From positions 1 through 21,173 of the IMG/VR virus record IMGVR_UViG_2660238548_000014: a stretch of 21,173 nt of DNA; one strand, written 5' to 3'. The DNA comes from a virus (lineage: Duplodnaviria; Heunggongvirae; Uroviricota; Caudoviricetes). A program made the translations under genes and the position numbers. The notes beneath the pieces are model-generated. The model was not told the DNA's origin. It did no database searches and saw nothing but the letters and a program-made list of their open reading frames with translations. Every line of letters starts with the position of its first letter. Position 1 is the first letter of the stretch. Of this stretch, positions 4,368 to 21,173 are shown piece after piece.

Positions 4368-4374
4368 GGGTTAT

Positions 4375-4584
<210 letters not shown>

Positions 4585-4599
4585 TTAGTACATGCAACC

Positions 4600-4669
4600 A
4601 TTATCACCGCCAGAGGTAAAATAGTCAACACGCACGGTGTTAGATATTTATCCCTTGCGGTGATAGATT
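4600..4669. promoter_or_regulatory. OR1-OR2-OR3 operators with divergent pR (toward cro) and pRM (toward cI)
   Basis: 17-bp operators at 4602..4618 (OR1), 4626..4642 (OR2) and 4649..4665 (OR3). pR -10 GATAAT and -35 TTGACT on the minus strand (4600..4605, 4623..4628). pRM -35 TAGATA (4641..4646) and -10 TAGATT (4664..4669) on the plus strand. cI is leaderless (ATG at 4676). Confidence 0.85.
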
Positions 4670-4672
4670 TAA

Positions 4673-5389
<717 letters not shown>

Positions 5390-5501
5390 TCGGCAAGGTG
5401 TTCTGGTCGGCGCATAGCTGATAACAATTGAGCAAGAATCTTCATCGAATTAGGGGAATTTTCACTCCCCTCAGAACATAACATAGTAAATGGATTGAAT
5501 T

Positions 5502-6341
5502 ATGAAGAATGGTTTTTATGCGACTTACCGCAGCAAAAATAAAGGGAAAGATAAGCGCTCAATAAACCTGTCTGTTTTCCTTAATTCTCTGCTGGCTGAT
5601 AATCATCACCTGCAGGTTGGCTCCAATTATTTGTATATTCATAAAATCGATGGAAAAACTTTTCTCTTTACCAAAACAAATGACAAGAGTCTGGTTCAGA
5701 AGATAAATCGCTCTAAAGCTTCAGTTGAAGATATTAAGAATAGCCTCGCAGATGACGAATCATTGGGATTCCCATCTTTTTTGTTTGTTGAAGGCGACAC
5801 CATTGGTTTTGCCAGAACTGTTTTCGGGCCGACCACATCCGATCTGACAGATTTTTTAATCGGGAAAGGAATGTCATTAAGCAGTGGAGAGCGCGTTCAG
5901 ATAGAGCCACTGATGAGGGGAACCACCAAAGACGATGTTATGCATATGCATTTCATCGGCCGAACAACGGTGAAGGTAGAAGCCAAGCTACCTGTATTTG
6001 GCGATATATTAAAGGTCTTAGGGGCAACAGATATTGAAGGGGAGCTTTTTGACTCATTGGATATAGTCATTAAGCCAAAATTTAAAAGGGATATAAAAAA
6101 GGTTGCCAAGGATATTATTTTTAACCCGTCACCTCAATTTTCAGACATTAGCCTGCGGGCAAAAGATGAGGCCGGAGATATTTTAACAGAACATTATCTA
6201 TCAGAAAAAGGCCATCTCTCAGCGCCTCTGAACAAGGTCACCAATGCTGAGATAGCTGAAGAGATGGCATATTGCTACGCAAGAATGAAAAGTGATATAC
6301 TGGAATGTTTTAAAAGGCAGGTGGGCAAAGTTAAGGATTAA
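5502..6341 (+). CDS. rexA: RexA (abortive-infection/exclusion protein)
   Basis: 279-aa ORF directly downstream of cI, as in the lambda immunity operon. Sequence matches my recollection of RexA. Confidence 0.85.
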   Translation: MKNGFYATYRSKNKGKDKRSINLSVFLNSLLADNHHLQVGSNYLYIHKIDGKTFLFTKTNDKSLVQKINRSKASVEDIKNSLADDESLGFPSFLFVEGDTIGFARTVFGPTTSDLTDFLIGKGMSLSSGERVQIEPLMRGTTKDDVMHMHFIGRTTVKVEAKLPVFGDILKVLGATDIEGELFDSLDIVIKPKFKRDIKKVAKDIIFNPSPQFSDISLRAKDEAGDILTEHYLSEKGHLSAPLNKVTNAEIAEEMAYCYARMKSDILECFKRQVGKVKD

Positions 6342-6356
6342 TTATCAGGAGTAATT

Positions 6357-6791
6357 ATGCGGAACAGAATCATGCCTGGTGTTTACATAGTAATAATTCC
6401 TTACGTTATCGTAAGCATTTGCTATCTCCTTTTCCGCCACTACATTCCTGGTGTTTCTTTTTCAGCTCATAGAGATGGTCTTGGGGCGACATTGTCATCA
6501 TATGCAGGAACCATGATTGCAATCCTGATTGCTGCCTTGACGTTTCTAATCGGAAGCAGAACGCGCCGACTGGCCAAGATTAGAGAGTATGGGTATATGA
6601 CATCGGTAGTTATTGTCTATGCCCTTAGTTTTGTTGAGCTTGGAGCTTTGTTTTTCTGCGGGTTATTGCTTCTTTCCAGCATAAGCGGCTACATGATACC
6701 CACTATCGCCATCGGCATTGCCTCTGCATCGTTCATTCATATATGCATCCTTGTTTTCCAACTATATAATTTGACCAGAGAACAAGAATAA
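6357..6791 (+). CDS. rexB: RexB (membrane ion-channel component of Rex exclusion)
   Basis: 144-aa multi-pass hydrophobic protein following rexA. Length and position match lambda RexB. Confidence 0.85.
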   Translation: MRNRIMPGVYIVIIPYVIVSICYLLFRHYIPGVSFSAHRDGLGATLSSYAGTMIAILIAALTFLIGSRTRRLAKIREYGYMTSVVIVYALSFVELGALFFCGLLLLSSISGYMIPTIAIGIASASFIHICILVFQLYNLTREQE

Positions 6792-6817
6792 CCCGGCCTC
6801 AGCGCCGGGTTTTCTTT
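6792..6817 (+). terminator. rho-independent terminator after rexB (t-imm-like)
   Basis: CCCGGC-CTCAGC-GCCGGG hairpin followed by TTTTCTTTG, immediately after the rexB stop. Confidence 0.6.
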
Positions 6818-6964
6818 GCCTCACGATCGCCCCCAAAACACATAACCAATTGTATTTATTGAAAAATAAATAGATACAACTCACTAAACATAGCAATTCA
6901 GATCTCTCACCTACCAAACAATGCCCCCCTGCAAAAAATAAATTCATATAAAAAACATACAGAT

Positions 6965-7027
6965 AACCATCTGCGGTGATAAATTATCTCTGGCGGTGTT
7001 GACATAAATACCACTGGCGGTGATACT
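6965..7027 (+). promoter_or_regulatory. OL3-OL2-OL1 operators and pL promoter
   Basis: TATCTCTGGCGGTGTTGACATAAATACCACTGGCGGTGATACTGAGC. OL3 at 6965..6981, OL2 at 6985..7001, OL1 at 7009..7025, -35 TTGACA at 6999..7004, -10 GATACT at 7022..7027. Confidence 0.85.
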
Positions 7028-7066
7028 GAGCGCATCAGCAGGACGCACTGACCACCATGAAGGTGA

Positions 7067-7097
7067 CGCTCTTAAAAATTAAGCCCTGAAGAAGGGC
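7067..7097 (+). promoter_or_regulatory. nutL (boxA 7067..7082, boxB hairpin 7083..7097)
   Basis: CGCTCTTAAAAATTAA followed by GCCCTGAAGAAGGGC, downstream of the pL start. Confidence 0.75.
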
Positions 7098-7255
7098 AGC
7101 ATTCAAAGCAGAAGGCTTTGGGGTGTGTGATACGAAACGAAGCATTGGCCGGAAGTGCGATTCCGGATTAGCTGCCAATGTGCCAATCGCGGGGGGTTTT
7201 CGTTCAGGACTACAACTGCCACACACCACCAAAGCTAACTGACAGGAGAATCCAG

Positions 7256-7579
7256 ATGGATGCACAAACACGCCGCCGCGAACGTCGCGCAGAGAAACAG
7301 GCTCAATGGAAAGCAGCAAATCCCCTGTTGGTTGGGGTAAGCGCAAAACCAGTTAACCGCCCTATTCTCTCGCTGAATCGCAAACCGAAATCACGAGTAG
7401 AAAGCGCACTAAATCCGATAGACCTTACAGTGCTGGCTGAATACCACAAACAGATTGAAAGCAACCTGCAACGTATTGAGCGCAAGAATCAGCGCACATG
7501 GTACAGCAAGCCTGGCGAATGCGGCATAACATGCAGTGGACGCCAGAAAATTAAGGGAAAATCGATTCCTCTTATCTAG
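7256..7579 (+). CDS. N: antitermination protein N
   Basis: ATG at 7256 with an AGGAG RBS at 7244..7248. 107-aa MDAQTRRRERRAEKQAQWKAANPLL... with the arginine-rich boxB-binding N-terminus. The 133-aa track ORF is the historical over-extension. Confidence 0.9.
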   Translation: MDAQTRRRERRAEKQAQWKAANPLLVGVSAKPVNRPILSLNRKPKSRVESALNPIDLTVLAEYHKQIESNLQRIERKNQRTWYSKPGECGITCSGRQKIKGKSIPLI

Positions 7580-8131
7580 TTACTTAGATATTGGCCTTGG
7601 CTTTATCTCAATATTATATGGATCATAGCTGGCAACTAATTCAGTCCAGTAAATATCCTCAATAGGGAATAATATATGCTTCCCATTCCATCGGGAAAAA
7701 GTTTTGTTCAACACACCAAGCTCAATCAACTCACTAATGTATGGGAATTGTTTTGATGTAACCACATACTTCCTGCCTTCATTAAGGGCTGCGCACAAAA
7801 CCATAGATTGCTCTTCTGTAAGGTTTTGAATTACTGATCGCACTTTATCGTTTTGCATCTTAATGCGTTTTCTTAGCTTAAATCGCTTATATCTGGCGCT
7901 GGCAATAGCTGATAATCGATGCACATTAATTGCTAGCGAAAATGCAAGAGCAAAGACGAAAACATGCCACACATGAGGAATACCGATTCTCTCATTAACA
8001 TATTCAGGCCAGTTATCTGGGCTTAAAAGCAGAAGTCCAACCCAGATAACGATCATATACATGGTTCTCTCCAGAGGTTCATTACTGAACACTCGTCCGA
8101 GAATAACGAGTGGATCCATTTCTATACTCAT
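7580..8131 (-). CDS. sieB: superinfection exclusion protein B-like membrane protein
   Basis: ORF abutting the N stop on the opposite strand, as sieB does in lambda. Hydrophobic segments (IVIWVGLLLL, VFVFALAFSLAI). The first ATG is at 8131; the track starts at an upstream TTG. Confidence 0.65.
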   Translation of the reverse strand: MSIEMDPLVILGRVFSNEPLERTMYMIVIWVGLLLLSPDNWPEYVNERIGIPHVWHVFVFALAFSLAINVHRLSAIASARYKRFKLRKRIKMQNDKVRSVIQNLTEEQSMVLCAALNEGRKYVVTSKQFPYISELIELGVLNKTFSRWNGKHILFPIEDIYWTELVASYDPYNIEIKPRPISK

Positions 8132-8368
8132 CAAACTGTAGGGGTTGTAATAGTTTATCCGATTTCTCGCTGTAGGGGTACACGAGAACCACCGAGCCTG
8201 ATGTGGTTAAAAGACAGGCATACTAATAAACACTGCACTGTGTATTCATTCCAACGAGTGAATACACTGAGCAATGTCGCTCGTAACTAAACAGGAGCCG
8301 ACTTGTTCTGATTATTGGAAATCTTCTTTGCCCTCCAGTGTGAGGGCGATTTTTTTGACGGAGGATAT

Positions 8369-9337
8369 ATGAGTGAAGTAACAGATTTAGTTGTTATTGA
8401 AAAAGCAAATGCAATGACTGTATTTCAGTCTGCCGACCAGATTGAAGAAATCCTTCAAAAGGTTGAACGTGAAGTTATGTCCTTTGTGCCTGATATCACA
8501 ACGGCAAAGGGCAGAAAGGAGATCGCTTCTCTGGCGTATAAAGTTGCGCAGACGAAAACATATCTCGATGGTCTTGGCAAAGACCTTGTTGCTGAACTGA
8601 AGGAAATTCCAAAGCTAATTGATGCCAACCGCAAGACAGTGCGCGATCGCCTTGATGAACTGAAAGCCAAGGCACGCCAGCCTCTTACTGATTATGAGGA
8701 AGAACAGGCGCGAATTAAAGCCGAAGAAGAAGCTAAGGCAGCAGCTGAAGCTCTCGCAAAGCAAATTGAGTCTGACCATGAAATAGCGATTTTGATGGAT
8801 CGCGAATTTGACCGCCAAAGAGAAGAGGCAAGACTCAAAGCGGAGCAGGAAAAGCGAGAGCATGAAGAACGCTTAAAAAGAGAAGCTGAAGAGAAAGCCA
8901 GAGCAGAAGCCGAAGCAAAGGCAAAAGCCGAAATTGAAGCAGCAGCAAGGCGAGAAGCAGAAGCTAAGGCCGCAGCGGAACGTGCAGAGCGTGAACGCAT
9001 TGAAGCCGAGCAACGAGCACAGCGCGAAGCAAAAGAGGCAGCAGAACGAGCCGAAAGAGAAAAGCAGGCGGCAATTGAAGCAGAACGTAGAAAAGCACAG
9101 GAGGAGGCTGAACGAATCCGGCGCGAGGCTGAAGCAAAAGAGCAAGCCAGAATAGCAGAAGAAAAAAGAATCAAGGACGAAGAAGAGCGTAGAGCAAAGG
9201 ATAAAGCTCACCGGAAAGAAGTAAATAACAAAATACTTGCTGACCTTATCAAGTTTGGTGCATCAGAAGATGTTGCTAAAAATATCATAACAGCCATCGT
9301 AAAAGGCGAAGTATTCGCAACAAAAATAACCTACTAA
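8369..9337 (+). CDS. hypothetical coiled-coil protein with a long Glu/Ala/Lys/Arg-rich low-complexity region
   Basis: ATG at 8369 with a GGAGGA RBS. 322 aa with about 150 residues of EAKAKAEAEA/ERAERE-type repeats (TolA-like composition). First pL-operon gene after the lambda-like block. Confidence 0.6.
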   Translation: MSEVTDLVVIEKANAMTVFQSADQIEEILQKVEREVMSFVPDITTAKGRKEIASLAYKVAQTKTYLDGLGKDLVAELKEIPKLIDANRKTVRDRLDELKAKARQPLTDYEEEQARIKAEEEAKAAAEALAKQIESDHEIAILMDREFDRQREEARLKAEQEKREHEERLKREAEEKARAEAEAKAKAEIEAAARREAEAKAAAERAERERIEAEQRAQREAKEAAERAEREKQAAIEAERRKAQEEAERIRREAEAKEQARIAEEKRIKDEEERRAKDKAHRKEVNNKILADLIKFGASEDVAKNIITAIVKGEVFATKITY

Positions 9338-9361
9338 TAAAACCAACATAAGGAACCACCC

Positions 9362-9493
9362 ATGATTTACGCAATCGCGGGAGGCGCTCGCATGGGTGCC
9401 TTCCAATTAAATGAATCTTTACTTGAACGAATCACCCGTAAATTACGTGACGGATGGAAAAGAGTTGAGGTCTTATTATGCGCAATGAAATAG
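9362..9493 (+). CDS. small hypothetical protein (43 aa)
   Basis: ATG preceded by AAGGAACC. Below the 60-aa track cut-off; called only from manual translation. Confidence 0.3.
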   Translation: MIYAIAGGARMGAFQLNESLLERITRKLRDGWKRVEVLLCAMK

Positions 9494-9630
9494 CCATTAA
9501 TCACCAGATGCTTCGTGCGGCACAAAACAAAGCAGTAATAGCCAGATTTATTGGTGATTCAAAAATGTGGCTTGAAGCAAATAAAGCAATGAAATCAGCT
9601 ATCAACCTTCCGTGGTATCGCAGGAAATGA
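9478..9630 (+). CDS. small hypothetical protein (50 aa)
   Basis: ATG at 9478. Its stop overlaps the next ATG (ATGA), suggesting translational coupling. Confidence 0.3.
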   Translation: MRNEIAINHQMLRAAQNKAVIARFIGDSKMWLEANKAMKSAINLPWYRRK

Positions 9631-9797
9631 GTTTTACAGATAACTGGTCAGACGAAGAATTCATTCGTCAGATGAAAGATTTAATCGGTAACGAAGGAGA
9701 TATTCATGTCACTTGCAACCACAGTGAAGGAGAGCAAGTTACAGAGACGCATGTACACGCAGCAGGCGTTAATGTATCGCCAGAATGGAGATCGTGA
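9627..9797 (+). CDS. small hypothetical protein (56 aa)
   Basis: ATG at 9627 with an AGGA 3 nt upstream. Sits within a GTG-initiated 61-aa track ORF. Confidence 0.4.
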   Translation: MSFTDNWSDEEFIRQMKDLIGNEGDIHVTCNHSEGEQVTETHVHAAGVNVSPEWRS

Positions 9798-9886
9798 AGG
9801 TGTTCGCGTATTTTTAAATGCGGCAAAGACTGAAGTATTAAATAAGCGTTATTTCCTTGGGCCGTGTCCATTCTGAGAACAAACAT

Positions 9887-10492
9887 ATGAGCAAAGAATT
9901 TTACGCAAAACTGGCAGCTATTCAGGAGAACTTGAATGCGCCAAAGAATCAGTACAACTCATTCGGTAAATATAAATACAGAAGCTGCGAAGACATTCTT
10001 GAAGGCGTTAAGCCGTTACTGAACGGTCTGTTTTTATCAATCAGCGATGAAGTTGTGTTGATTGGTGATCGGTATTACGTGAAAGCCACGGCAACTATTA
10101 CCGATGGCGAAAACAGTCATACGGCAACCGCTCTTGCACGAGAGGAAGAAAGCAAGAAAGGAATGGATTCTGCACAAGTTACGGGAGCCACAAGCTCTTA
10201 TGCACGCAAGTATTGCCTCAATGGTTTGTTCGGCATTGATGATGCGAAAGATGCAGATACCGACGAGCATAAACATCAGCAGAACGCAGCAGCAAAGCAA
10301 TCAAAACCATCACCTACACCTGAACAGGTTCTAAAAGCATTCACTGACGCAGCAATGCAGAAAAACACCGTAGAAGAGCTTAAACAGGCGTTCGCCAAAG
10401 CGTGGAAGATGCTCGAAGGCACACCGGAGCAGCACAAAGCGCAGGACGTTTACAACATCAGACGAGACGAATTAGAAGGAGCGGCTGCTTAA
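9887..10492 (+). CDS. erf: Erf-family single-strand annealing (recombination) protein
   Basis: The motifs FGKYKYRSCEDILEGV and ATSSYARKYCLNGLFGIDD match the conserved ERF-superfamily signatures (P22 Erf-like). ATG at 9887. Confidence 0.75.
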   Translation: MSKEFYAKLAAIQENLNAPKNQYNSFGKYKYRSCEDILEGVKPLLNGLFLSISDEVVLIGDRYYVKATATITDGENSHTATALAREEESKKGMDSAQVTGATSSYARKYCLNGLFGIDDAKDADTDEHKHQQNAAAKQSKPSPTPEQVLKAFTDAAMQKNTVEELKQAFAKAWKMLEGTPEQHKAQDVYNIRRDELEGAAA

Positions 10493-10875
10493 TGGCACAT
10501 TCGATTACAGTAAGACTAAACAAACCCGCAAGAGAGTTTCAGGCCGGGGAAAATATCGGATTCAACATCCGTGCTGGCGTTCAGTATTACGATCGCCAGA
10601 CAAAAAAGAAAGAATGGACAAACTACAGCGCCGTTGTATTTGCCAAGCCGGGAGCGCAAGCGGATTACTACCGTAGTGTTCTTGTTGAAGGTAGCATTGT
10701 AGAAATTACCGGAGAAAACATCAGGGTTGATGTTTATCAGGGGCAAAATGGTCAATCAATCACTCTTGAATTACTGAATGCAAAGATTGGATTTGCAGCT
10801 TCAGGAAATGGCCCGCAGCAGCAAAGTAGTAACCATCAGAACACTCCTGTTTACGACGATTCCATCCCATTCTGA
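10492..10875 (+). CDS. phage single-stranded DNA-binding protein (SSB-like, acidic C-terminal tail)
   Basis: ATG overlaps the erf stop (TAATG). The 127-aa product ends in DDSIPF, resembling the DDDIPF tail of SSB proteins. Position next to erf fits a recombination module. Confidence 0.65.
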   Translation: MAHSITVRLNKPAREFQAGENIGFNIRAGVQYYDRQTKKKEWTNYSAVVFAKPGAQADYYRSVLVEGSIVEITGENIRVDVYQGQNGQSITLELLNAKIGFAASGNGPQQQSSNHQNTPVYDDSIPF

Positions 10876-10898
10876 TTTAGAACAATAAGGATTTAATT

Positions 10899-11192
10899 AT
10901 GCCAGCGCCTCTGTATGGTGCGGACGACGTGCGCCGCTGTTCCGGCAATTCCGTATCGGAGGTGCTGGATAAATTCAGAAAAAACTACGCCCGGATAATG
11001 TCGCTACCGCAGGAAACGAAAGAGGAAAAGGAATTTCGCCACTGTATATGGCTTGCAGAGAAAGAAGAGCGCGAGCGAATTTACCAGACATCAATCCGAC
11101 CATTCCGCAAAGCCACATATACCCACTTCCCTGAAATTGACCCGCGCCTGCGTAATTACCGCTCACGCTATGGCGCTATCAGTAATGACTGA
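10899..11192 (+). CDS. hypothetical protein
   Basis: 97-aa ORF with an AAGGA RBS 8 nt upstream. No recognised motif. Confidence 0.55.
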
Positions 11193-11202
11193 GGAATTTA
11201 CC

Positions 11203-11370
11203 ATGAGAGGACTTGCATACAATCCCGGCATTCTTCCGGCAGAAATGATTATTCGCCAACGCGTAAAGCCAATGCCATCGAGAGAGGAATTGCTTAAGAG
11301 AAACTCTTTTCCATCAGTGAATCAAAACAAATATCTGAATGCGATGTGGCGTAAAGGAGGCAAGCAGTGA
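11203..11370 (+). CDS. small hypothetical protein (55 aa)
   Basis: ATG at 11203 with a GAGGA RBS. Its stop overlaps the GTG start of the next gene. Confidence 0.45.
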
Positions 11371-12314
11371 GCGAAATTAATTATCAGGCACTGCGTGAAA
11401 AGGCAGAGAAAGCAACTAAAGGAAGCTACATCGTAGGGCATACATCTGTTAACCAGCACGGCAATTTAACAGGAGTTTTTGTTTGTCAAAAATGGAAAGG
11501 AGAACCCGGTGGCGTGATTGCAGAATGTCATGTTAACTGCCTGGTTGAAACAGATGCTCAGGCTTACGCAAACGCTGAATTTATTGCTGCCTTTAATCCA
11601 AATGTTGCGCTGGCGCTTCTGGATGAACGGGAAAGAAACCAGCAATACATCAAACGCCGCGACCAGGAGAACGAGGATATTGCGCTTACGGTAGGGAAGC
11701 TGCGCGTTGAGCTTGAAGCAGTAAAATCAAAACTCAACGAGCAGCGTGAATATTACGAGGGAGTAATCGCGGATGGAAGTAAGCGCATAGCAGAACTGGA
11801 AAAACAATGCGCCGAATGGGAGCGAAAAGCATTAAGCAACTTTGAAGAGTGTGCTGCGATGGCTGAACGTATCGAAGAGATGCAGACAAAATCTGCACCA
11901 GATTCGTTTGGCATCATCGGTGAAAATATTCGAACACAGGACAATCGAATAACGTCAGATCCCATGTTTTGTGTGTATCAAAAGCGCGAAATTGTTGTTG
12001 ATGCTGATTATGACCATGACCGGATTGTCTGGGTTGACGAAGATGGCAATGAAGCCAATAAACGCCATAGTCGTCGTCTCGAGCTACTTCATGAAAACTT
12101 TCGAGAGCCACCAGAAAAATGGCGGCGCGTTGCTGTGAAAGATATTGATGAATTCGTTACCTGCTGTTTCACCGAACAGGGTTGTAAAGACTACCTGGCA
12201 GTCAATGGTCACAATCTTCGCTTGCCATTTATATATGTAAAAAGCGGTTTCAGGAACGCTGAATATATCGGCATAAGAAACTGGCTTGCTGGCATTCGCA
12301 TCAAAGGAGAGTGA
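11367..12314 (+). CDS. Ead/Ea22-like protein
   Basis: GTG start preceded by a strong AAGGAGG RBS. The N-terminus [19 protein letters not shown] resembles the conserved start of Ead/Ea22-family prophage proteins, with a coiled-coil middle. Confidence 0.6.
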
Positions 12315-12315
12315 T

Positions 12316-12831
12316 ATGGCGTTAACACACCGCGAACTCTGTCAGATTGCGTACAAGTTCCTTAAGCGCAACGGGTTCAAGGTTTGTTTTCATGACCGCT
12401 TTATAGCTGTAACCAGTACCGGAGAACAGCCAGATGCTATGGGATTCAGAAATTCAGCATCATGCCTGATAGAGGCGAAATGTTCTCGTGCTGACTTGTT
12501 GGCAGATAGAAAAAAGCGTTTTCGTAAAAATCCGTCTCTTGGAATGGGCGACTGGCGATTCTTTATTAGTGAGCCGGGAATTATTTCAATTGAGGATTTA
12601 CCACCTGGCTGGGGATTACTTCACGTTGTTAACGGAAGAGTACGGAAAGTACATGGGTGGCCCAAGGGTAATTGCTGTTGGGGTAATCCTGACGATAAGC
12701 CATTTACTGGAAATAAGCAGGTTGAATGCGATTACATGTTGTCTGCATTAAGGCGCATGGAGTTGAGAGGGCACCTTAATGAAATATATGACGGTGTAAT
12801 TGTTAATAAGAAAGAAGGAAACGCGGCATGA
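12316..12831 (+). CDS. hypothetical protein with a putative PD-(D/E)xK nuclease motif
   Basis: ATG at 12316 with an AAGGAGAG RBS. Contains EQPD...CLIEAKC, a D...ExK arrangement typical of the PD-(D/E)xK fold. Called from the motif only. Confidence 0.5.
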   Translation: MALTHRELCQIAYKFLKRNGFKVCFHDRFIAVTSTGEQPDAMGFRNSASCLIEAKCSRADLLADRKKRFRKNPSLGMGDWRFFISEPGIISIEDLPPGWGLLHVVNGRVRKVHGWPKGNCCWGNPDDKPFTGNKQVECDYMLSALRRMELRGHLNEIYDGVIVNKKEGNAA

Positions 12832-13184
12832 CCACTATTACCGACAAAGAACTGATTAAAGAAATCAAAGAGCGCATAGGCAGCTTGGACGTTCGAGACA
12901 ATATTGAGCGCCGTGCTTATGAAATTGCACTGGCATCGCTGGAAGCAGAACCGATAGCGTGGGAATGCGGTGAAAACATAATCCTGTTTAACCCTGACAC
13001 AGTTGAAGCATACGCAAAACGTGCGGAAATATCACCTAAACCACTATTCTCCGCGCCGCCAGCGCTGGTAGTGCCTGATAAGTTGCCGCGTGAATACAGA
13101 AACGGTTGGCCTCTTGCGTATAGTGATTATGCTGAAGGCTGGAACGACTGCCGCGAAGCCATGCTTCAGGGAGATAAATCATGA
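12828..13184 (+). CDS. hypothetical protein
   Basis: 118-aa ORF with ATGA overlap to the upstream gene and an AAGGAA RBS. Confidence 0.55.
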   Translation: MTTITDKELIKEIKERIGSLDVRDNIERRAYEIALASLEAEPIAWECGENIILFNPDTVEAYAKRAEISPKPLFSAPPALVVPDKLPREYRNGWPLAYSDYAEGWNDCREAMLQGDKS

Positions 13185-13546
13185 TTAATCGTATCAAGCT
13201 GGAGCACATCCTCGAATATGCCAGGCAGCAGAGGCATATTGGTCAGCATTGTAAAATTCCACCAGTAGATATGGTTGAAATCATGGAGATTGCCATGCGC
13301 AAGGCTGGCAACTCTCCGGTAACTCCGGATGGTTGGATAAGCTGTAGTGAGCGAATGCCGGAAAAGAATCAGAGCGTGCTTATTTCGGTGAATTTCGATA
13401 GCTCTCTGGTTGAGCCGCTAATATGCTCTGCACGCTATACCGGAAGTACATTCCGGCGTGGAGATGTAACGATTAAGCCGGGCAATGGTGTTGAGCAGGT
13501 AACACACTGGATGCAGCTACCAGAACCGCCGCAGGAGGTGAAATGA
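13181..13546 (+). CDS. DUF551-like prophage protein
   Basis: The motifs WISCSERMPE and HWMQLPEPP resemble the DUF551 signature common in enterobacterial prophages. ATGA overlap upstream. Confidence 0.55.
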   Translation: MINRIKLEHILEYARQQRHIGQHCKIPPVDMVEIMEIAMRKAGNSPVTPDGWISCSERMPEKNQSVLISVNFDSSLVEPLICSARYTGSTFRRGDVTIKPGNGVEQVTHWMQLPEPPQEVK

Positions 13547-13629
13547 TGAATTGGCCTGAAGCATTCACCGCAGTAGGAGTTGCAATAGCGGTGGCATTTA
13601 TTCTGTATTCGCTTTTCCGCTGGGGATAA
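13543..13629 (+). CDS. small hydrophobic peptide (28 aa, single predicted TM helix)
   Basis: ATGATG preceded by AGGAGGTG. Product MMNWPEAFTAVGVAIAVAFILYSLFRWG. Below the track cut-off. Confidence 0.35.
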   Translation: MMNWPEAFTAVGVAIAVAFILYSLFRWG

Positions 13630-13633
13630 AGGA

Positions 13634-13876
13634 ATGTTCGCTCTGATTCAACGTGGTCAGATATACACGGACAGAGCCGGATACCCTGTGGTGATTACTC
13701 GCAGTACTCAGCACTCAGTATTCTTTCGGCGCATGGACGGACGCTCCGGGCGGGTACACATTGGTGAGTTCAACAGCCTGTTCGAACATATTGACCGCCA
13801 GGAGTACCGCAAAATTCTGGCGGGCACTGAGCAGGAAATGCACCTGAAAAAATTACGCGCAATGCAACGGAGGTGA
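13634..13876 (+). CDS. hypothetical protein
   Basis: 80-aa ORF with an AAAGGA RBS. Confidence 0.5.
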   Translation: MFALIQRGQIYTDRAGYPVVITRSTQHSVFFRRMDGRSGRVHIGEFNSLFEHIDRQEYRKILAGTEQEMHLKKLRAMQRR

Positions 13877-13879
13877 TAC

Positions 13880-14014
13880 ATGCATACGGCTTTTGAGTTC
13901 TGGGTTCGCAAGACATTCGGCAATCGCTACGACCTGCCCCGTGATGTTGACGGCTTCTACTGCCGTGAAGTTGTGAAACGAATGTTTGACGTGTGGTGCC
14001 ACTGCCGTGGATGA
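13880..14014 (+). CDS. small Cys-rich hypothetical protein (44 aa)
   Basis: ATG preceded by GGAGGTG. Product contains FYCRE...WCHCRG. Below the track cut-off. Confidence 0.35.
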   Translation: MHTAFEFWVRKTFGNRYDLPRDVDGFYCREVVKRMFDVWCHCRG

Positions 14015-14032
14015 ACGTTTTATGAGGTAACT

Positions 14033-14248
14033 ATGGCTCTCAACATTGATTGCGTACCTATAACGACATGGTGTCGAGATATGGGAGAAACGCTGGATGC
14101 CGTTAACAAACGGTTACAACGTGGAGTATGGAAGGAAGGGGTTCAGGTTTTAAATGTGGAAGGCTCCAAAGAACGATGGATTGATTTAACTGAGGTTTCA
14201 AAATGGGCGAGAAAAAACAAATATCCTTATCACTCCCAAGAGGAATAA
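14033..14248 (+). CDS. xis: excisionase-like protein
   Basis: 71-aa basic protein immediately upstream of, and overlapping, the integrase gene, with a GAGGT RBS. The position is canonical for xis; no family assignment was possible. Confidence 0.5.
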   Translation: MALNIDCVPITTWCRDMGETLDAVNKRLQRGVWKEGVQVLNVEGSKERWIDLTEVSKWARKNKYPYHSQEE

Positions 14249-15375
14249 CAATTCGTCAATACAAGAATTGCTCTACATTAGTTGTAACCTTCACATATAA
14301 AGGGGTTCTTTGCAGAGAACCCTTACCCAGGCTGGAAGCTAACGCAAAGGGGATTAAGTATGCTGAACGGCTTCTAGGAGAAATAAAAAACCAAATCAGT
14401 GATGATTCATTCGATTTTTCAAAATACTTTCCAAACTCTAGGAAGCTGGCATTATTTGGAATGGTAAAGAAAAATAAAAGTGTGAGAGATTACCTAGATG
14501 AGTATCTGGAAATTTGCAAAAACAGAAAGTTATCACCTTCAACAATAAATGGATATGAAAAATGCGTATCTGCATTATCTGAACTACATAAGCTACATGT
14601 TGTTGACCTGACACCAGCAATATTAAAAAAATGGATCTCAAAAAGAACAACAAAACTTAAGACCATAAGAAACAATCTATCATTTTTAAGAAGTGCAGTA
14701 GATGAAGCGGTCACTGACGGACTTATAACGATAAATCCTGTAAAACTGGTTAGTGCAAGTAGATACCATGCGGTTAACCATACAGCCAATACTGATGATT
14801 ATGAAGTGGATCCATTCACACCAGCAGAGGCAACAGCTATCTACAACGCCTGTCTTTATCAGGAATGGAGAAATCTTTTTTGTTTCGCATTCAATACAGG
14901 CCTACGAAGCTCAGAATTATGTGCATTGCGTTGGTCTGATATTGATTTTATTGGGCATACCGTTCACGTACAGGTCGCTTCTGTCGTTGGTGTGATAAAA
15001 GGAACCAAAACAAAAGCTGGTACCAGAAAAGTTGAATTAAACAATGAAGCTATAATGGCATTACAGGCCCAGAAATCATTTACGATGATGAGAAGTGATT
15101 TTGTATTCAGTGATCCAAAAACACGCAAGCCGTGGGCTAATTCAGCTGCGATTCGTAAGAAAGCCTGGCTCCCGACTCTTAAAAAGGCCGGAGTTCGTTA
15201 CCGCAATCCATATCAGACTAGACATACATTCGCTACACGGCATATCAGCCAGGGGGCAAATTTATTCTGGCTTGCCGGTCAAATGGGACACAAAGGACCA
15301 GAAATGCTGTTTAGACACTATGGTTCATATTTATCAGAATATGATGGCAAGACTGCGATCTCAGAAGTAATCTAG
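14203..15375 (+). CDS. int: tyrosine-type site-specific integrase (prophage int)
   Basis: 390-aa ORF with the tyrosine-recombinase C-terminal catalytic region (..RHTFATRHISQGANLFWLAGQMGHKGPEMLFRHYGSY..). It overlaps xis and is followed by the att core. Confidence 0.85.
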   Translation: MGEKKQISLSLPRGITIRQYKNCSTLVVTFTYKGVLCREPLPRLEANAKGIKYAERLLGEIKNQISDDSFDFSKYFPNSRKLALFGMVKKNKSVRDYLDEYLEICKNRKLSPSTINGYEKCVSALSELHKLHVVDLTPAILKKWISKRTTKLKTIRNNLSFLRSAVDEAVTDGLITINPVKLVSASRYHAVNHTANTDDYEVDPFTPAEATAIYNACLYQEWRNLFCFAFNTGLRSSELCALRWSDIDFIGHTVHVQVASVVGVIKGTKTKAGTRKVELNNEAIMALQAQKSFTMMRSDFVFSDPKTRKPWANSAAIRKKAWLPTLKKAGVRYRNPYQTRHTFATRHISQGANLFWLAGQMGHKGPEMLFRHYGSYLSEYDGKTAISEVI

Positions 15376-15509: not shown

Positions 15510-15535
15510 GGGTTCAACTCCCGCCAGCTCCACCA
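15510..15535 (+). other. attachment-site core: 26-nt copy of the 3' end of ssrA (tmRNA), not an intact gene
   Basis: GGGTTCAACTCCCGCCAGCTCCACCA matches the 3'-terminal T-arm and acceptor sequence of E. coli tmRNA as I recall it. Sequence immediately upstream does not match ssrA. Confidence 0.75.
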
Positions 15536-15571
15536 CTTTTTAGTTGTTTGAAGTTCAATGAAGTCTACTAA

Positions 15572-15603
15572 GCCCACACAGCACAAGCTCTGCGGGCTTT
15601 TTT
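15572..15603 (+). terminator. putative rho-independent terminator downstream of the ssrA fragment
   Basis: Imperfect GC-rich hairpin (GCCCACA...CTCTGCGGGC) followed by TTTTTT. Confidence 0.4.
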
Positions 15604-15700
15604 ACGTCTATTGTCGTCCAGTGAGAATTGCTGAGAACTACGAGTTATGGCACCCTGAATGGGACCCACTAAGAAGGGTCCAAAAACCGAGGGTCCCAAA

Positions 15701-16930
15701 ATGGCAAAAATCGCTAAGAAGCTCACTGACACTGAAATCAAAAGCACCAAGCCAGCCGATAAAGAAATCAACTTGTTTGACGGTGATGGTCTGATTCTAC
15801 GAATCGCTCCTTTGGCGAAAGGAGGCAAGAAAAATTGGTATTTCAGGTATGCAGTACCAGTGAGCAAGAAAAGAACCAAAATGAGCCTTGGGACATATCC
15901 TCACCTTACCCTTGCAAGAGCCAGAGCCTTACGTGATGAATATCTCTCCTTTCTGGCAAATGGTGTTGATCCCCAAATCCATAACAACGATAAGGCGAAG
16001 GCATTAAAGAGTGCTACTGAGCACACTCTCCAAGCCGTAGCGCGGAAATGGTTAGATGAGAAGGTAAAGACATCAGGTATCTCACAAGACCATGCAGCAG
16101 ACATCTGGCGCAGCTTAGAGAGAAATGTCTTTCCCGGTCTGGGTAATGTCCCTATCAATGAGATCCGACCTAAGCTCTTAAAACAACACCTTGATCCTAT
16201 TGAGCAACGAGGCGTATTGGAAACTCTACGCCGTATCATTTCACGTCTGAATGAAATCTTCCGGTGGGCAGCTACTGAAGAACTTATTGAGTTCAACCCG
16301 GCTGACAACCTTGGTCAAAGATTCAGTAAACCAAAAAAGCAAAATATGCCTGCCCTTCCCCCAAGCGAATTGCCAAGGTTTATGGAATCTTTGACGAATG
16401 CGTCAATCCGGTTGGAAACACGTATGCTAATTGAATGGCAATTGTTGACATGGGTTCGTCCGGGTGAAGCCGTTCGCGCAAGGTGGTCTGATATTGATAC
16501 AACCAACAGCATTTGGAACATTCCTGCTGATTTCATGAAAATGAAAAAGCTTCACAAAGTTCCTTTGAGTAAAGAAGCTTTGCGCATCCTTGAATTAATG
16601 AAATCAATAAGTGGGCATAGAGAATGGGTTTTCCCCAGCATAAAAGCGCCTCTTAATCATATGCATGAACAAACAGCCAACGCAGCTATCATCCGAATGG
16701 GGTTCGGAGGCGAGCTTGTAGCTCACGGTATGCGTTCTATTGCACGAACAGCGGCAGAGGAGTCTGGTAAATTCAGAGCTGAAGTTCTTGAGGCAGCGCT
16801 TGCCCACTCGAAAAAAGATGAAATTATCGCAGCATACAATCGTGCAGAATATCTGATAGAGCGACAGAGTTTGATGCAATGGTGGAGTGATTACGTTCAA
16901 GCTCAAAGATCAAATGCTCTGGTAGCCTAA
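15701..16930 (+). CDS. intA: P4/CP4-57-type tyrosine integrase
   Basis: The N-terminus MAKIAKKLTDTEIKSTKP...DGDGLILRIAP..WYFRY resembles the arm-binding domain of IntA-type integrases, and the C-terminus has VAHGMRSIARTA and ALAHS. It lies just downstream of the ssrA 3' end, as intA does in K-12. ATG at 15659 is an alternative start. Confidence 0.85.
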   Translation: MAKIAKKLTDTEIKSTKPADKEINLFDGDGLILRIAPLAKGGKKNWYFRYAVPVSKKRTKMSLGTYPHLTLARARALRDEYLSFLANGVDPQIHNNDKAKALKSATEHTLQAVARKWLDEKVKTSGISQDHAADIWRSLERNVFPGLGNVPINEIRPKLLKQHLDPIEQRGVLETLRRIISRLNEIFRWAATEELIEFNPADNLGQRFSKPKKQNMPALPPSELPRFMESLTNASIRLETRMLIEWQLLTWVRPGEAVRARWSDIDTTNSIWNIPADFMKMKKLHKVPLSKEALRILELMKSISGHREWVFPSIKAPLNHMHEQTANAAIIRMGFGGELVAHGMRSIARTAAEESGKFRAEVLEAALAHSKKDEIIAAYNRAEYLIERQSLMQWWSDYVQAQRSNALVA

Positions 16931-16968
16931 GTATCAGAATAGCTAATATAATCCTGAAGGTAAAGAAA

Positions 16969-17385
16969 ATGGAAACCCTATTCAAAGTTTTTGAAAAATT
17001 TAGTTCCAGACCACTTTTTTTTATTTTTTTCGGACTCTCACTTTGTGAATTTTTTCAGAAACAATCTGTTCTGATGAATCCATCAGCAGATAACATCGCG
17101 AAATTATTCGCAGCCATGATATTAGTTGTTTTTTTTACTTGGGGATTTGAATGGCTAATCTTCAAGTTCAATGTAAACCTTGAACCTCATGATCAAGGCG
17201 ATATTGGACCAACAATTGGAACGGCTACTTTAGCTGTATACTTAGTTTATGCCTTTCACTTTCTCAGTGAAAATCCTGAAGCATTAAATTTAAAGTTATT
17301 AACTAACTCTGGCTTTATATACAGCACAACTCTATTATTATTCTCATTAGAATGCATGAAGCTTAGAAGACTTAAACAAAAATAA
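16969..17385 (+). CDS. hypothetical small membrane protein
   Basis: 138-aa ORF with a GAAGG RBS, several hydrophobic helices, AT-rich codon usage. Convergent with the two-gene module. Confidence 0.55.
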   Translation: METLFKVFEKFSSRPLFFIFFGLSLCEFFQKQSVLMNPSADNIAKLFAAMILVVFFTWGFEWLIFKFNVNLEPHDQGDIGPTIGTATLAVYLVYAFHFLSENPEALNLKLLTNSGFIYSTTLLLFSLECMKLRRLKQK

Positions 17386-17456
17386 ACAACATCATTGTGA
17401 TGATAAATATAAAATAGGCATGGCGAAAAAAAATCACCACGCCTAAAATATAATAA

Positions 17457-19205
17457 TTATGGTAGCATCATTGATACATAATCCACACCAATCCTTGAGC
17501 TATACTGAGACGCTATAGCCTGATATCTTTCTGCATAACCAGTTCTCAGTTGAGATTTAAGTTTGAGTCGGACAGGAACATTTTGCACGTTGCCATCCAT
17601 ATTACTTAAAAACACGGCAGAAATAATATTTTTTTCTTCGCCATCAACTGTTGTTCCATGATTCAACACCACCATATAATCAACAACAGGAAGCGTTTTA
17701 TCCCCTTCGAAAATAGAGAGATATTTTCTTTGATTTTTATGCATTACATATATATATTTCGAATATTCAGCAAATGGCAATGCTTTACTCTGACTGGCGT
17801 TAAAAAGCTCCAGAACTTTAATGAGCCTGTGCGGACTTAATCTTACATGGTGAGGGTCGTTACCCTGAGTAGGAACCAAATCACATGCCGCAGATACACA
17901 TAAATACCATTTGTTCGACTCTGTATCAAAGAAAATAGTGCCAGTAGAAATATGACCATCTTCAAAATTCTTTGAAGACAAATTCATATTTAAAGCATGA
18001 TACATTTCGTGATAAGTATCATTATTTGATGGCAGATCCATTTTTGAAGAGCAATATTGGAGCAATGCAGCAACTCCGCTGTTAGCGTATTCATTTGAAT
18101 AGCTATCAAAAACACTTTTGATAAATTCATCCAGCGTATTATTATTTTTAAGTCTTTGATAAAGCTCTTCTGATAAATTACCAAATACAAAGTCAATATT
18201 TCTACATCTAATATCAGGCGAGTCTGATTTTAATATCTCATTTAACCACGCAGCTTGACCGTAATGATCGTTAGCCAAATGATTTACAAAAGATAAAGCC
18301 TCAGCTTCGATTGCATTCTGAATTTCAGATTTTATTAACTGATAATAAGATGGTTTCCATTCAATGAGAGAATCATTGAGAGTTTGCCAAATCCTATCTC
18401 CATCGTTTTCATGATCATCTTGAACCTTATGAAATAGGGAGACAAAGATATTACCACATTGAATCCATTTTACTCCGCTTTCATCACCCCGAATGACATT
18501 GCCAGATGTGTTGCTAGAAATAATTGCATTTCTAGACACAGCATATTCTGCAATCATTTTTGCAATGAAGTTTTTATCCTTTTGATCCTCCAACACAGCA
18601 TCATCATGTATTAATCTTTTAATTCTTCTACAAGGCTTACTGTCTTTAATATAGGCTATTGTTTCATCTCTTGTGAGAGCTTTATTACCATTATCATTTA
18701 AGTTCGGTAATACAACGTCTTCCCAATAACTTTGGACATCTTCATTATCGTAGTCAATGATCAAGCTGTTGATATCCAGAGCACCTTTGAGAGTCGATGA
18801 TATCTGCATCCAAACCGTTTCTAAATTCTCTCTAGTATATATTACAATCATATTTAAATGATCGGAGTCTTTCAAATCTTGTAATAGTTTAAGTGTTTTA
18901 TCAGGTGCATTATTATCAAGATGATAATCTACAATAATAAGATCTGATTTTCTAATCCGATCCACATCGAAATTAACAGAACCATTGTCAACATCACAAA
19001 TCATATTTTTAGATTGAAAAAAGCTCTCAAGAGTAGCGGCTCGTTTAGATGAGTCAATTTTGTTGTAGTCTAAATCAACTTCGTTATTCAACGCCCTGAT
19101 TGATTCAGAATACGTCAGAAAATCGTCATCAATCATGACAACGGAACGAATTGCATTTTCGCAGAAAGTTTTCTGGACAAGAGAATTATAATTTGCCACT
19201 GTCAT
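17457..19205 (-). CDS. receiver (REC)-like domain protein with ~430-aa C-terminal domain of unknown function
   Basis: The likely start is the ATG at 19205 (GGAG 7 nt upstream), 1 nt after the upstream stop. The N-terminus has receiver-like elements: SVVMIDDD, DLIIVDYHL (candidate phospho-acceptor Asp) and NMIVIYT. The remainder has no motif I recognise. Confidence 0.65.
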   Translation of the reverse strand: MTVANYNSLVQKTFCENAIRSVVMIDDDFLTYSESIRALNNEVDLDYNKIDSSKRAATLESFFQSKNMICDVDNGSVNFDVDRIRKSDLIIVDYHLDNNAPDKTLKLLQDLKDSDHLNMIVIYTRENLETVWMQISSTLKGALDINSLIIDYDNEDVQSYWEDVVLPNLNDNGNKALTRDETIAYIKDSKPCRRIKRLIHDDAVLEDQKDKNFIAKMIAEYAVSRNAIISSNTSGNVIRGDESGVKWIQCGNIFVSLFHKVQDDHENDGDRIWQTLNDSLIEWKPSYYQLIKSEIQNAIEAEALSFVNHLANDHYGQAAWLNEILKSDSPDIRCRNIDFVFGNLSEELYQRLKNNNTLDEFIKSVFDSYSNEYANSGVAALLQYCSSKMDLPSNNDTYHEMYHALNMNLSSKNFEDGHISTGTIFFDTESNKWYLCVSAACDLVPTQGNDPHHVRLSPHRLIKVLELFNASQSKALPFAEYSKYIYVMHKNQRKYLSIFEGDKTLPVVDYMVVLNHGTTVDGEEKNIISAVFLSNMDGNVQNVPVRLKLKSQLRTGYAERYQAIASQYSSRIGVDYVSMMLP

Positions 19206-19206
19206 A

Positions 19207-20925
19207 TTAGAACTCCACTCCATTGAACTGGATCACAAAATTAGCGCCATCTTTTATTAAATAGTTATCGCCTTCATCAGGTTCTAAATACCATATTTTA
19301 TGATGTGCAACAGCAAGGTTTTCTCGACATAGATACAGACCTACCCCATGTCCATTTGCTCTTTTGCTATAAAATAGTTCAAATAGTCGCGGGATATCAT
19401 CGGTATCAATTGCCGGACCAGAATTTGCTATGATAACCAAAGAATTCACAAAACCAATCTTTATGAGCCTATTATTTGACAGACTGACCCAATACATTGC
19501 ATTGTTGATAATATTAGTAAAAACAGGATAGATCCTTGATGGTATATCTGTTATTGCGATTTGCTTAAACTCTTCACTAAATTCAATAGTTATTCGTTGC
19601 CGTTCGAAACGCTCCCCAAAGAACTTCAGGACATAATCCATGATATTTTTTCCAGTTATTCTCTGCCTGGATTGATAACCTGATATTTTCAAAGGTGATA
19701 AGAAACGTATTTGTTGAGTAAGCGATCTGTGAGCATTTAACGCCAATGAAAAACCAGGGTGTTCTTTTACAGAAGTAGGAAGAGAGTTTAGTCCTCTGGT
19801 TACCATAGAATCCATTTCTTCAAGTTCATGAGATATTATCTCAACACTAATACCTAACTGTGCAAGCGCGTTTAAACTTTTAGCTTTTTCTTCAAAATAT
19901 GAGCGTTCTTCTTCAGATAATGAGAATGCTGAATCTAAGTTTATACCTTCAAATAATCTATCGAGACCTTTTATTATTGATTGATATTTGAAAGTTAGGG
20001 TATCAACTGACTCAACATATAAACTATCGAGCAAATTAAACACATTTTCAATTTGTGAATCATTATCTATTGAATCAACAACTGATATAGTTTTAGCATA
20101 ATAATCACTTCGATCAACCTTTATTTCATCGGCCCATTTTTTTAAAAGAGAATGTATCTTCTCCTCTATCGTGTTATTAAACTTAGTTAGTTTAGAATTA
20201 ATAATACCTTGATTTTTTTCAAGGTGATTTTTCGCTGACAATGAAGGCTCAAGTTTATTTAATTCAGAATCAAGTTTATTAATTGCTAACTTCATTTGTA
20301 GAATATACGCAGAGAACTCATTAAATTTATCTCTGTAGTCTCTATATTTCTCTTCATACATTCCAAGTTTTGGAGGTTTGATAGGCGTTTTAATTTCACT
20401 GCGCAACGCATCTAAGTTTGTAAGATCACTGTCTATAATTTTAAGATAGTTTAAATCTAACGAACCATCAGTTTTATCAAGCTTAGTTTTCAGCCTTTTA
20501 ACAGCCTCCAAGGAAGCATCAAGAACTGGTGTCTGATTCTTCAAAGCTTCTGAAAAACTTTTTTGTGTTGATTTTCGAGCTTGTTGTTGAGCAGATTTTC
20601 TTAACTCTTTTTCACGCTTAACTTGTTCTAAAAGCTCTTTACGGTCATCAGAACGTGAACCAAAAAATCTATCAGCAAGTTCAGTTAACAAATTAGATAT
20701 AATAGTTTTCAGTTCTCTTGCAGCCTGGTTTCTTATGAATCCCTCTCTCCCCGACTTATCTTTCAGCTCTTTATTACTGGATTGAGTAATTCCAATATAA
20801 CCAAAAATCCTTCTATTAGACCAATAATATCGCCCTGCATTCCATGAACGTCTTTCTTCTATCTGGAAGAAATCATTATCTACTCGACCATAAGGTAATA
20901 CTCTCAAGCTATCCCTAAAAATCAT
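19207..20925 (-). CDS. cytoplasmic histidine-kinase-like ATPase; 5' end probably truncated by IS3
   Basis: H-box-like EIISHELEE (His codon at 19828..19830), N-box RIYPVFTNIINNAMYW, G1/F-box IIANSGPAID...LFELFYS and G2-box GHGVGLYLCREN, in canonical order and spacing. No transmembrane segment. The frame stays open upstream of the first ATG as far as 21046, with no start codon. Confidence 0.7.
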   Translation of the reverse strand: MIFRDSLRVLPYGRVDNDFFQIEERRSWNAGRYYWSNRRIFGYIGITQSSNKELKDKSGREGFIRNQAARELKTIISNLLTELADRFFGSRSDDRKELLEQVKREKELRKSAQQQARKSTQKSFSEALKNQTPVLDASLEAVKRLKTKLDKTDGSLDLNYLKIIDSDLTNLDALRSEIKTPIKPPKLGMYEEKYRDYRDKFNEFSAYILQMKLAINKLDSELNKLEPSLSAKNHLEKNQGIINSKLTKFNNTIEEKIHSLLKKWADEIKVDRSDYYAKTISVVDSIDNDSQIENVFNLLDSLYVESVDTLTFKYQSIIKGLDRLFEGINLDSAFSLSEEERSYFEEKAKSLNALAQLGISVEIISHELEEMDSMVTRGLNSLPTSVKEHPGFSLALNAHRSLTQQIRFLSPLKISGYQSRQRITGKNIMDYVLKFFGERFERQRITIEFSEEFKQIAITDIPSRIYPVFTNIINNAMYWVSLSNNRLIKIGFVNSLVIIANSGPAIDTDDIPRLFELFYSKRANGHGVGLYLCRENLAVAHHKIWYLEPDEGDNYLIKDGANFVIQFNGVEF

Positions 20926-21046
20926 TAGTCCTGCATACTTTTTGGCCTTAAGATCAAAGTGGGAATGTTCACGTTCAGTATGTGATGTATTTTGTGAAAG
21001 GAATTCAAACGTTCCTATCTGAAGCTCAAATGGGCCGACCCCTGCG

Positions 21047-21173
21047 TGATCCTACCCACGTAATATGGACACAGGCCTAAGCGAGGTTCTTGTTTTCAAA
21101 TTGTTCCGGACTGAGGCCGCCACACCAACTGTGCCGCCGCCACCGATTGTAATCACATTCGATATAATTAAAC
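21047..21173 (-). mobile_element. IS3 element, right end (terminal inverted repeat plus 3' end of transposase orfB); continues beyond the window
   Basis: Plus strand from 21047 reads TGATCCTACCCACGTAATATGGACACAGGCCTAAGCGAGG..., matching the IS3 terminal repeat as recalled. The minus-strand translation ends ...[31 protein letters not shown]-stop. Confidence 0.75.
21077..21173 (-). CDS. IS3 transposase OrfB (InsF-like), C-terminal fragment
   Basis: The minus-strand frame gives ...[31 protein letters not shown] with its stop at 21079..21077. The N-terminal part is outside the window. Confidence 0.7.

Follow-up and report, generated by a model that had tools for sequence, protein, structure and literature searches.

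A Histidine-Kinase-like Gene Truncated at an IS3 End in the Remnant of an ssrA-Associated Island of Escherichia coli

Features at the Right-Hand Edge of the Window

The stretch of DNA analyzed in this work (hereafter, the window) is 21,173 nt long. From position 15510 onwards it corresponds to what is left of a genomic island, and it ends inside an insertion sequence (IS3) that lies next to a kinase-like gene. The features to which we refer below are as follows.

15510..15535, plus strand: point at which homology to the intact island starts; these ~26 nt repeat the end of the tmRNA gene (attachment-site core) and bound the island remnant on its left
15659..16930, plus strand: P4-type tyrosine integrase of the ssrA-associated island (Pfam Arm-DNA-bind_3, Phage_int_M and Phage_integrase), which adjoins the tmRNA gene in the intact locus L002
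16969..17385, plus strand: 138-aa open reading frame (ORF), conserved in the island, with no family assignment and convergent with the partner gene
17457..19205, minus strand: partner gene of 582 aa, with an N-terminal Response_reg_2 receiver (PF19192) and ~400 aa without a fold match
19207..20925, minus strand: 572-codon ORF, called 'ATP-binding protein' in RefSeq and equivalent to residues 417-988 of the full-length protein
20929..20932, minus strand: AGGA, the sole Shine-Dalgarno-like motif near the ATG at 20925, with a spacing of 3 nt, which is too short
21045..20926 (plus the junction base 21046), minus strand: 40 sense codons without a start codon, equivalent to residues 377-416 of the 988-aa protein
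Last 31 codons, with the stop at 21079-21077, minus strand: OrfB C-terminus of IS3, from translation
21047..21173, minus strand: right end of IS3 (127 bp), with an imperfect terminal inverted repeat from 21047; the window stops within the element

IS3 of Escherichia coli is a member of the IS3 family with a length of 1258 bp, two genes (orfA and orfB) and a programmed -1 frameshift. In the window, the plus strand reads TGATCCTACCCACGTAATATGGACAC... from position 21047 up to 21173, the last position. The terminal repeat begins with TGATCC, so that window 21047-21173 holds both marks by which IS3 was judged, namely, a terminal repeat beginning with TGATC and the C-terminus of an OrfB DDE transposase at the right end. 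Further, a 774-bp query that included these 127 bp matched 4325 E. coli records at 13070 places, where the annotation reads 'IS3-like element IS3 family transposase'. Sequence, translation and database matches agree with the original prediction, which had assigned the last ~127 bp to the right end of IS3, with the OrfB C-terminus and the terminal repeat at 21047.

The kinase frame, on the minus strand, contains a TAG at 21054-21052, within the IS3 repeat, and after it reads D H A G V G P F E L Q I G T F E F L S Q N T S H T E R E H S H F D L K A K K Y A G L M. From the IS3 end to the ATG at 20925, in-frame ATG, GTG and TTG codons are all absent, and our translation thus reproduced the frame of about 40 sense codons without a start that had been described from the letters. 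The same was true of the AGGA motif, described as weak and closely spaced and measured here at 3 nt from the ATG, and of the common direction of the transposase and the kinase-like gene, both of which are encoded on the minus strand. A 40-codon open stretch would arise by chance with p of about 0.037 at a composition of 34% G+C and, empirically, 8 of 265 open stretches in wrong frames reached this length. The earlier wording that such a stretch is only moderately improbable was therefore fair, and it is the homology evidence that decides instead.

The Kinase-like Gene Has Lost Its 5' Part

The translatable remnant of the kinase-like gene comprises 612 aa (window 19207-21045, minus strand). A protein search with this translation retrieved homologues of 988-991 aa in Salmonella, Klebsiella and Serratia, with 99% identity over 100% of the query. 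The alignment to the 988-aa proteins opens at A377, and the 40 codons that precede the ATG reproduce residues 377-416 exactly. In the nucleotide comparison, window 15510-21047 showed 99.0% identity to the intact locus (L002 16663-11127), and homology to the intact gene stops at the IS3 terminus, which locates the breakpoint at 21046/21047 with an ambiguity of 1 bp. Since homology to the 988-aa gene starts at A377 and ends at IS3, 376 codons are missing (residues 1-376; 1128 bp, or 38% of the gene). These results support that IS3 abuts the kinase-like gene and that the true 5' part of the gene is gone, in line with what had been proposed.

With regard to domain content, the 612-aa translation scored above the Pfam cut-offs for HEF_HK (PF19191; 26.3 bits vs. 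24.1) and HATPase_c (PF02518; 42.3 bits vs. 26.4). It lacks the HATPase_c_3 domain (MORC-type GHKL) that the 99%-identical full-length protein has at residues 28-137. The 572-codon ORF contains what is left of a truncated alpha/beta domain, long helices, HEF_HK (DHp-like, with the H-box ISHELEE) and HATPase_c. Residues H782-E783, invariant in 35 homologues, are present in the window as part of ISHELEE, and the N and G boxes are also intact. AlphaFold modelled the full-length protein poorly (mean pLDDT 62, with the N-terminus below 50), so only the secondary structure around the breakpoint was used. With low confidence, the model places Met417 in a beta-strand of an alpha/beta domain (~residues 300-470) that would be missing its first strands, with the breakpoint falling inside this domain too.

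A hypervariable patch in the remnant was considered and rejected. Changes in 32 singleton 572-aa E. coli variants cluster at residues 303-318 of the 612 aa (window 20092-20139); this proved to be an artefact of k-mer-based clustering, as the main cluster of 2075 sequences varies elsewhere and never in the patch, and complete genomes had no marked excess of mismatches at 20092-20139.

The Partner Gene Encodes a Receiver-Domain Protein

The partner gene starts 1 nt past the stop codon of the kinase-like gene, and the adjacent Response_reg_2 gene expected of group 1 HEF_HK kinases is therefore present. The acidic residues of the receiver are conserved. Of the autophosphorylation on His and phosphotransfer to the receiver Asp that define a classical two-component system, the sequences show the conserved residues. 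The other ~400 residues of the partner comprise helices and, at the C-terminus, a beta-rich domain; C436, C441 and R571 are invariant and D442 nearly so. The C-terminal region, residues ~230-582 (window 17457-18500), was confidently modelled. Neither Pfam, nor a PDB sequence search, nor Foldseek returned any match to the ~400-aa region, and the C-terminal part is treated here as a putative output domain. In PADLOC-DB 2.0.0, the kinase remnant had no match and the partner only a chance-level one (E 0.0028).

The Intact Cassette Resides in a Mobilisable Island at ssrA

In the intact loci L002 and L003, the order of genes is smpB, the tmRNA gene (L002 16638-17001), a P4-type integrase, the 138-aa ORF, the receiver gene, the 988-aa gene, a C5 DNA methylase gene, a relaxase gene and further recombinase genes. 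The end of the methylase gene overlaps the start of the kinase gene by 20 nt. The intact locus is thus a mobilisable island at ssrA. No complete tmRNA gene was found in the window. An allele with 72% identity is also present in E. coli, in an integrative and conjugative element (ICE) that carries the same methylase, kinase and receiver trio. The C5 methylase gene was present in all of L002, L003, L005, L011, L014 and L015, and is absent from the window.

The cassette, which occupies L002 8812-14717 and L011 6817-12720, has overlapping or 1-nt-spaced gene junctions, and it is found on two kinds of mobile element, the ssrA island with a relaxase and the ICE with TraI_2/TraG/TraU. A further restriction-related neighbour, a gene for a ScoMcrA-like protein with DNA-binding and HNH parts, is located just past the cassette in Salmonella (L005 9775-10650) and Morganella (L015 6574-7446); in Salmonella, the 138-aa ORF lies between this gene and the cassette. 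The 138-aa ORF is possibly membrane-associated, given a weak match to a transmembrane family, and its place beside the receiver gene is conserved in the Salmonella and Klebsiella loci as well as in the ssrA islands.

The remainder of the window (1-15375) corresponds to the early region of a lambdoid prophage (replication, recombination and immunity) with its integrase at 14203-15375. This prophage sits between ssrA and the island remnant, and the two elements are thus arranged in tandem. No complete genome contained the whole window in one place; the best was 2013C-3342, with 78% coverage, in which stx1a is located outside the matched window, ~2-3 kb beyond its start.

Synonymous divergence from the Serratia-type island (window 15659-21045 vs. 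L002) was 0.082 for the integrase, 0.034 for the receiver gene and 0.010 for the kinase remnant. This fall along the locus suggests a recombination mosaic instead of uniform descent.

The Remnant Is Found in About a Tenth of E. coli Genomes and Has Probably Lost IS3 More Than Once

The remnant was detected in 561 of 5426 complete E. coli genomes (about a tenth), always on the chromosome and with at least 99% identity in the segments searched. Carriers included O26, O103 and O111 strains and KO11FL, a derivative of E. coli W. Both ORFs were uninterrupted at the sites checked in ~98% of the 561 carriers; damage in some of the others consisted of IS1 in the remnant or, in 12 genomes, an IS in the partner gene.

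By means of a balanced 254-bp junction query, IS3 was found at the junction in 484 of the 561 carriers, while 77 were without it. Four IS3-less genomes were examined (one from an O111:H8 strain, one that carries stx1a and two of cattle or veal origin), with the junction sites at about L013 17850, L007 3645, L009 24223 and L008 4290. Their scars differ. The O111:H8 strain reads ...CCCCTGCG-CG-CATCTC and UTAK-14 reads ...CCCCTG-AATGGG, whereas 2013C-3342 is without IS3 and also lacks 59 bp of the remnant, and C3 has suffered a larger loss and the remnant is split. Two of the scars have short matching bases at the joint. Because small scars of different kinds were present in the four genomes, the losses of IS3 look like independent excisions. 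The IS-excision enhancer (IEE), a microhomology end-joining polymerase that Shiga-toxin-producing E. coli of O26, O103 and O111 possess (PMC9943667), is suggested here as a plausible candidate cause of these scars.

The Junction Points to an IS3-Bounded Deletion

Because IS3 continues past the end of the window, what lies beyond the element in the window's own strain is read from genomes with an identical junction. In one of these, the O26 strain E2865, the junction IS3 is 1258 bp long (L001 12648-13905), has imperfect terminal repeats that match at 28 of 40 positions, and contains orfA and orfB. Beyond it lie a 5'-truncated alpha-amylase-like pseudogene, ygaQ, and then glaH, lhgO and gabDTP. 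In K-12, ygaQ is continuous across the breakpoint, which falls ~1145 bp into the pseudogene. In E2865, the triplet next to IS3 is GCG toward the kinase gene but AGA toward ygaQ, which means that a 3-bp target duplication is absent; such flanks argue against a simple insertion and not against the identity of the element as IS3. Neither the 5' part of the kinase gene (1128 bp) nor the methylase gene that belongs to the allele of the remnant matched any of the 5426 complete E. coli genomes.

Half of ygaQ beyond IS3, no duplication and no 5' part of the gene together indicate a deletion bounded by IS3. The deletion starts at codon 376 of the kinase gene, takes in the remaining island and neighbouring chromosomal DNA, and ends in the middle of ygaQ. 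Searches of the genomes with a chimeric ygaQ-IS3 query detected no simple IS3 insertion in ygaQ. As neither this precursor nor an E. coli copy of the 5' kinase part was found, the mechanism and the order of events are those that we infer. The ancestor would have carried a mobilisable island inserted at ssrA, the tmRNA gene, with a cargo composed of a C5 DNA methylase, a receiver-domain protein and, between them, a 988-aa soluble protein (N-terminal MORC-like GHKL ATPase plus histidine-kinase-like core). A rearrangement associated with IS3 would then have removed the DNA from codon 376 of the kinase-like gene to mid-ygaQ, and with it the methylase gene and all other parts of the island on that side. 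Either a single IS3 copy generated an adjacent deletion, or two copies recombined. What would be left is a 3' portion with neither a promoter nor its own start, whose first usable ATG (20925) is the internal Met417, together with the intact partner gene. This remnant would have a single origin and would have been inherited vertically in one E. coli clade.

Two other accounts of the junction were weighed. In one of them, left open by the original prediction, the ATG at 20925 is the native start of a short HEF_HK plus HATPase_c protein of the 'group 2' type and IS3 merely lies upstream. It is in its favour that 34 of 222 family members are without the N-terminal HATPase_c_3 domain (Bellieny-Rabelo et al. 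2021, PMC8011034) and that proteins are annotated from the equivalent Met in several species, with lengths of 572 aa (Salmonella, Klebsiella) and 564 aa (Morganella), and also in Pectobacterium, Yersinia and Shigella. However, the 572-aa entries that we checked belong to full-length genes: an intact 994-codon ORF lies behind the Salmonella entry (L005 3993-6983), the K. pneumoniae gene has a frameshift near residue 309 (L014 1734-4719), and the Morganella locus (L015 1714-4695) is colinear over residues 1-994 in one frame and called as two ORFs. In the cases inspected, the short entries are hence best read as annotation choices or split genes and not as native short forms; wherever we inspected it, the DNA upstream of the equivalent Met was the related 5' part, and not the unrelated sequence by which the original prediction would have recognized a native start. 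Together with the identity of the 40 upstream codons to residues 377-416 and a homology break that lies at the IS3 end rather than at the ATG, this leaves a native start at 20925 with next to no chance.

The second account is a simple insertion of IS3, in which the missing start of the gene, with a 3-bp target duplication, lies on the far side of the element just outside the window. IS3 normally generates 3-bp target duplications, and the window stops within the element with its own far side outside, both of which favour it. Nevertheless, the only junction-bearing genome read across IS3, E2865, has half of ygaQ and the non-matching GCG and AGA flanks at this place, the remnant directly abuts the same ygaQ region in the four IS3-less carriers examined, and the 5' 1128 bp and the methylase gene are unmatched in the complete E. 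coli genomes. Thus, from the proposal that the IS had interrupted the gene, the 5' truncation at IS3 stands and the simple insertion does not, and looking on the far side of IS3 for the duplication and the missing gene part, as had been advised, yielded neither in E2865. We consider a simple insertion very improbable, and the IS3-bounded deletion is the reading retained in the following.

Expression and Function of the Remnant

A scan of positions 20700-21173 revealed neither a consensus promoter nor a terminator. The promoter-like hexamers published for the right end of IS3 (PMC12095673) were all found in the window, directed outward, toward the kinase remnant.

21172-21167 and 21151-21146, minus strand: TTTAAT and TACAAT
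21128-21123 and 21103-21098, minus strand: TTGGTG and CAATTT

The latter pair is that of Charlier 1982, and IS3 is reported as a mobile promoter in what PMC12095673 cites of that work. However, Fuqua and Wagner chose the 150-bp wild-type right end of IS3 for its lack of detectable promoter activity in a reporter assay, and removal of its last 50 bp increased expression ~1.9-fold, probably because of a pause or Rho site (PMC12095673). The idea of a hybrid promoter or of read-through from IS3, put forward in the original prediction, gains no support from this silence or from the junction, where no consensus promoter was detected, and expression of a shortened product is doubtful on the available sequence.

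Compared to the intact Serratia-type allele, the kinase remnant has 6 nonsynonymous (N) and 4 synonymous (S) differences, and its neighbours have 2N:12S (receiver gene) and 2N:23S (integrase), with Fisher p values of 0.03 and 0.002, respectively, against the remnant. Since 5 of the 6 nonsynonymous changes are at positions variable in the family, this raised N/S ratio is weak evidence of decay. The numbers of distinct protein variants were similar (2075 for the remnant and 1966 for the partner). In addition, the copies are nearly identical, so their intact ORFs may reflect a recent origin.

A remnant that works, rather than one that is inert, would require transcription that exits IS3, translation from the ATG at 20925, and a sensor-less kinase core able to phosphorylate the adjacent receiver, with the pair kept by selection. 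The intact H-box, N and G boxes, the conserved acidic residues of the receiver and the 1-nt spacing between the kinase stop and the partner start are what such a product would need, but Met417 falls, according to the model, within a partly deleted domain. As for expression, the mobile promoter attributed to IS3 is opposed by the poor Shine-Dalgarno spacing, the missing consensus promoter and the silent wild-type right end with its repressive last 50 bp; further, UTAK-14, 2013C-3342 and the O111:H8 strain, that is, three of the four IS3-less genomes examined, keep the 572-codon ORF annotated as intact, which argues against dependence on a signal carried by IS3. Selection on the pair could be read from the unbroken ORFs in nearly all carriers and from the 2N:12S of the partner gene, yet with copies at least 99% identical in the segments searched, intactness may be a matter of youth. 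We regard a working product as unlikely. A related proposal, in which the remnant is a natural version, without sensor and methylase, of a cassette linked to restriction-modification, appears to us quite unlikely. There, weak transcription out of IS3 would supply a Met417 core that constitutively drives the receiver protein, with its ~400-aa output domain, for a benefit such as phage or plasmid exclusion. Most likely, the remnant left by the IS3-bounded deletion is inert or barely expressed.

Discussion

Taken as a whole, our account is that an IS3-bounded deletion of an ssrA-island cassette left behind a remnant that is most likely inert or poorly expressed, and we assign to it a probability of roughly 80%. 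The finding is an ordinary IS-associated gene truncation in a decayed genomic island and not a new system, and it is already annotated piecemeal in RefSeq. There, hundreds of genomes list the remnant as an 'ATP-binding protein' of 572 aa, as if it were intact, and a truncated-gene flag is warranted. The abundance of this E. coli entry, a cluster of 2075 distinct sequences, may have encouraged the choice of the internal start elsewhere. Since the internal Met is annotated in species with a full-length gene, counts of short architectures, that is, HEF_HK plus HATPase_c without the MORC-like ATPase, are probably inflated.

The junction also provides a clean marker of one E. coli clade, and the later losses of IS3 constitute a small natural series of excision scars. 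The intact three-gene cassette, which in the window is not in working form, is the more interesting object, because it is carried on at least two kinds of mobile element and has no reported experimental function: the literature searched contained no experimental or biochemical function for either the HEF_HK family or the cassette.

The HEF_HK/Response_reg_2 family was described by sequence analysis, together with its link to C5 methylases, by Bellieny-Rabelo, Pretorius and Moleleki (2021, PMC8011034), and its dominant architecture (group 1) consists of HATPase_c_3, HEF_HK and HATPase_c. The remnant resembles group 1 pairs in its residues 377-988, which are 99% identical, in HEF_HK and HATPase_c domains above the Pfam cut-offs, and in its Response_reg_2 neighbour; it differs from them in that the window is without the N-terminal 376 residues, HATPase_c_3 and the upstream methylase gene. 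The 572-aa protein has exactly the domain content of 'group 2' in the same study (HEF_HK plus HATPase_c without HATPase_c_3), but in the window this architecture arose by truncation and not by native design, and some 'group 2' entries may thus be artefacts.

Similarity was also observed between residues 13-138 of the full-length protein and the BbrUII/HgiDII GHKL restriction enzymes (NF050001; E 1.5e-13), which share with it a C5 methylase partner. Nonetheless, the score of 50.2 bits against a cut-off of 550 concerns the N-terminal 120 residues only, and the protein is not a member of that family. The BbrUII/HgiDII-like part of the full-length protein is exactly the one that is deleted in the window.

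The element at the junction corresponds to IS3: its 127 bp in the window match annotated IS3 copies and include all of the published right-end hexamers, and the copy at the same junction in E2865 has the full length, typical terminal repeats and both genes. It departs from IS3 in two points read in E2865, the absence of a 3-bp target duplication around it and an internal stop in OrfB (AVVIDL*SRAVIGW; L001 12648-13905). Because of this stop, the E2865 copy encodes a defective transposase and probably cannot move by itself.

Finally, the locus shares features with the IS-bounded deletions and excisions described in Shiga-toxin-producing E. coli for IS629 and other IS3-family elements (PMC9943667). 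Here as there, one IS lies between unrelated truncated genes without a duplication, and the later IS losses, with their differing small scars, resemble the IS excision described in those strains.
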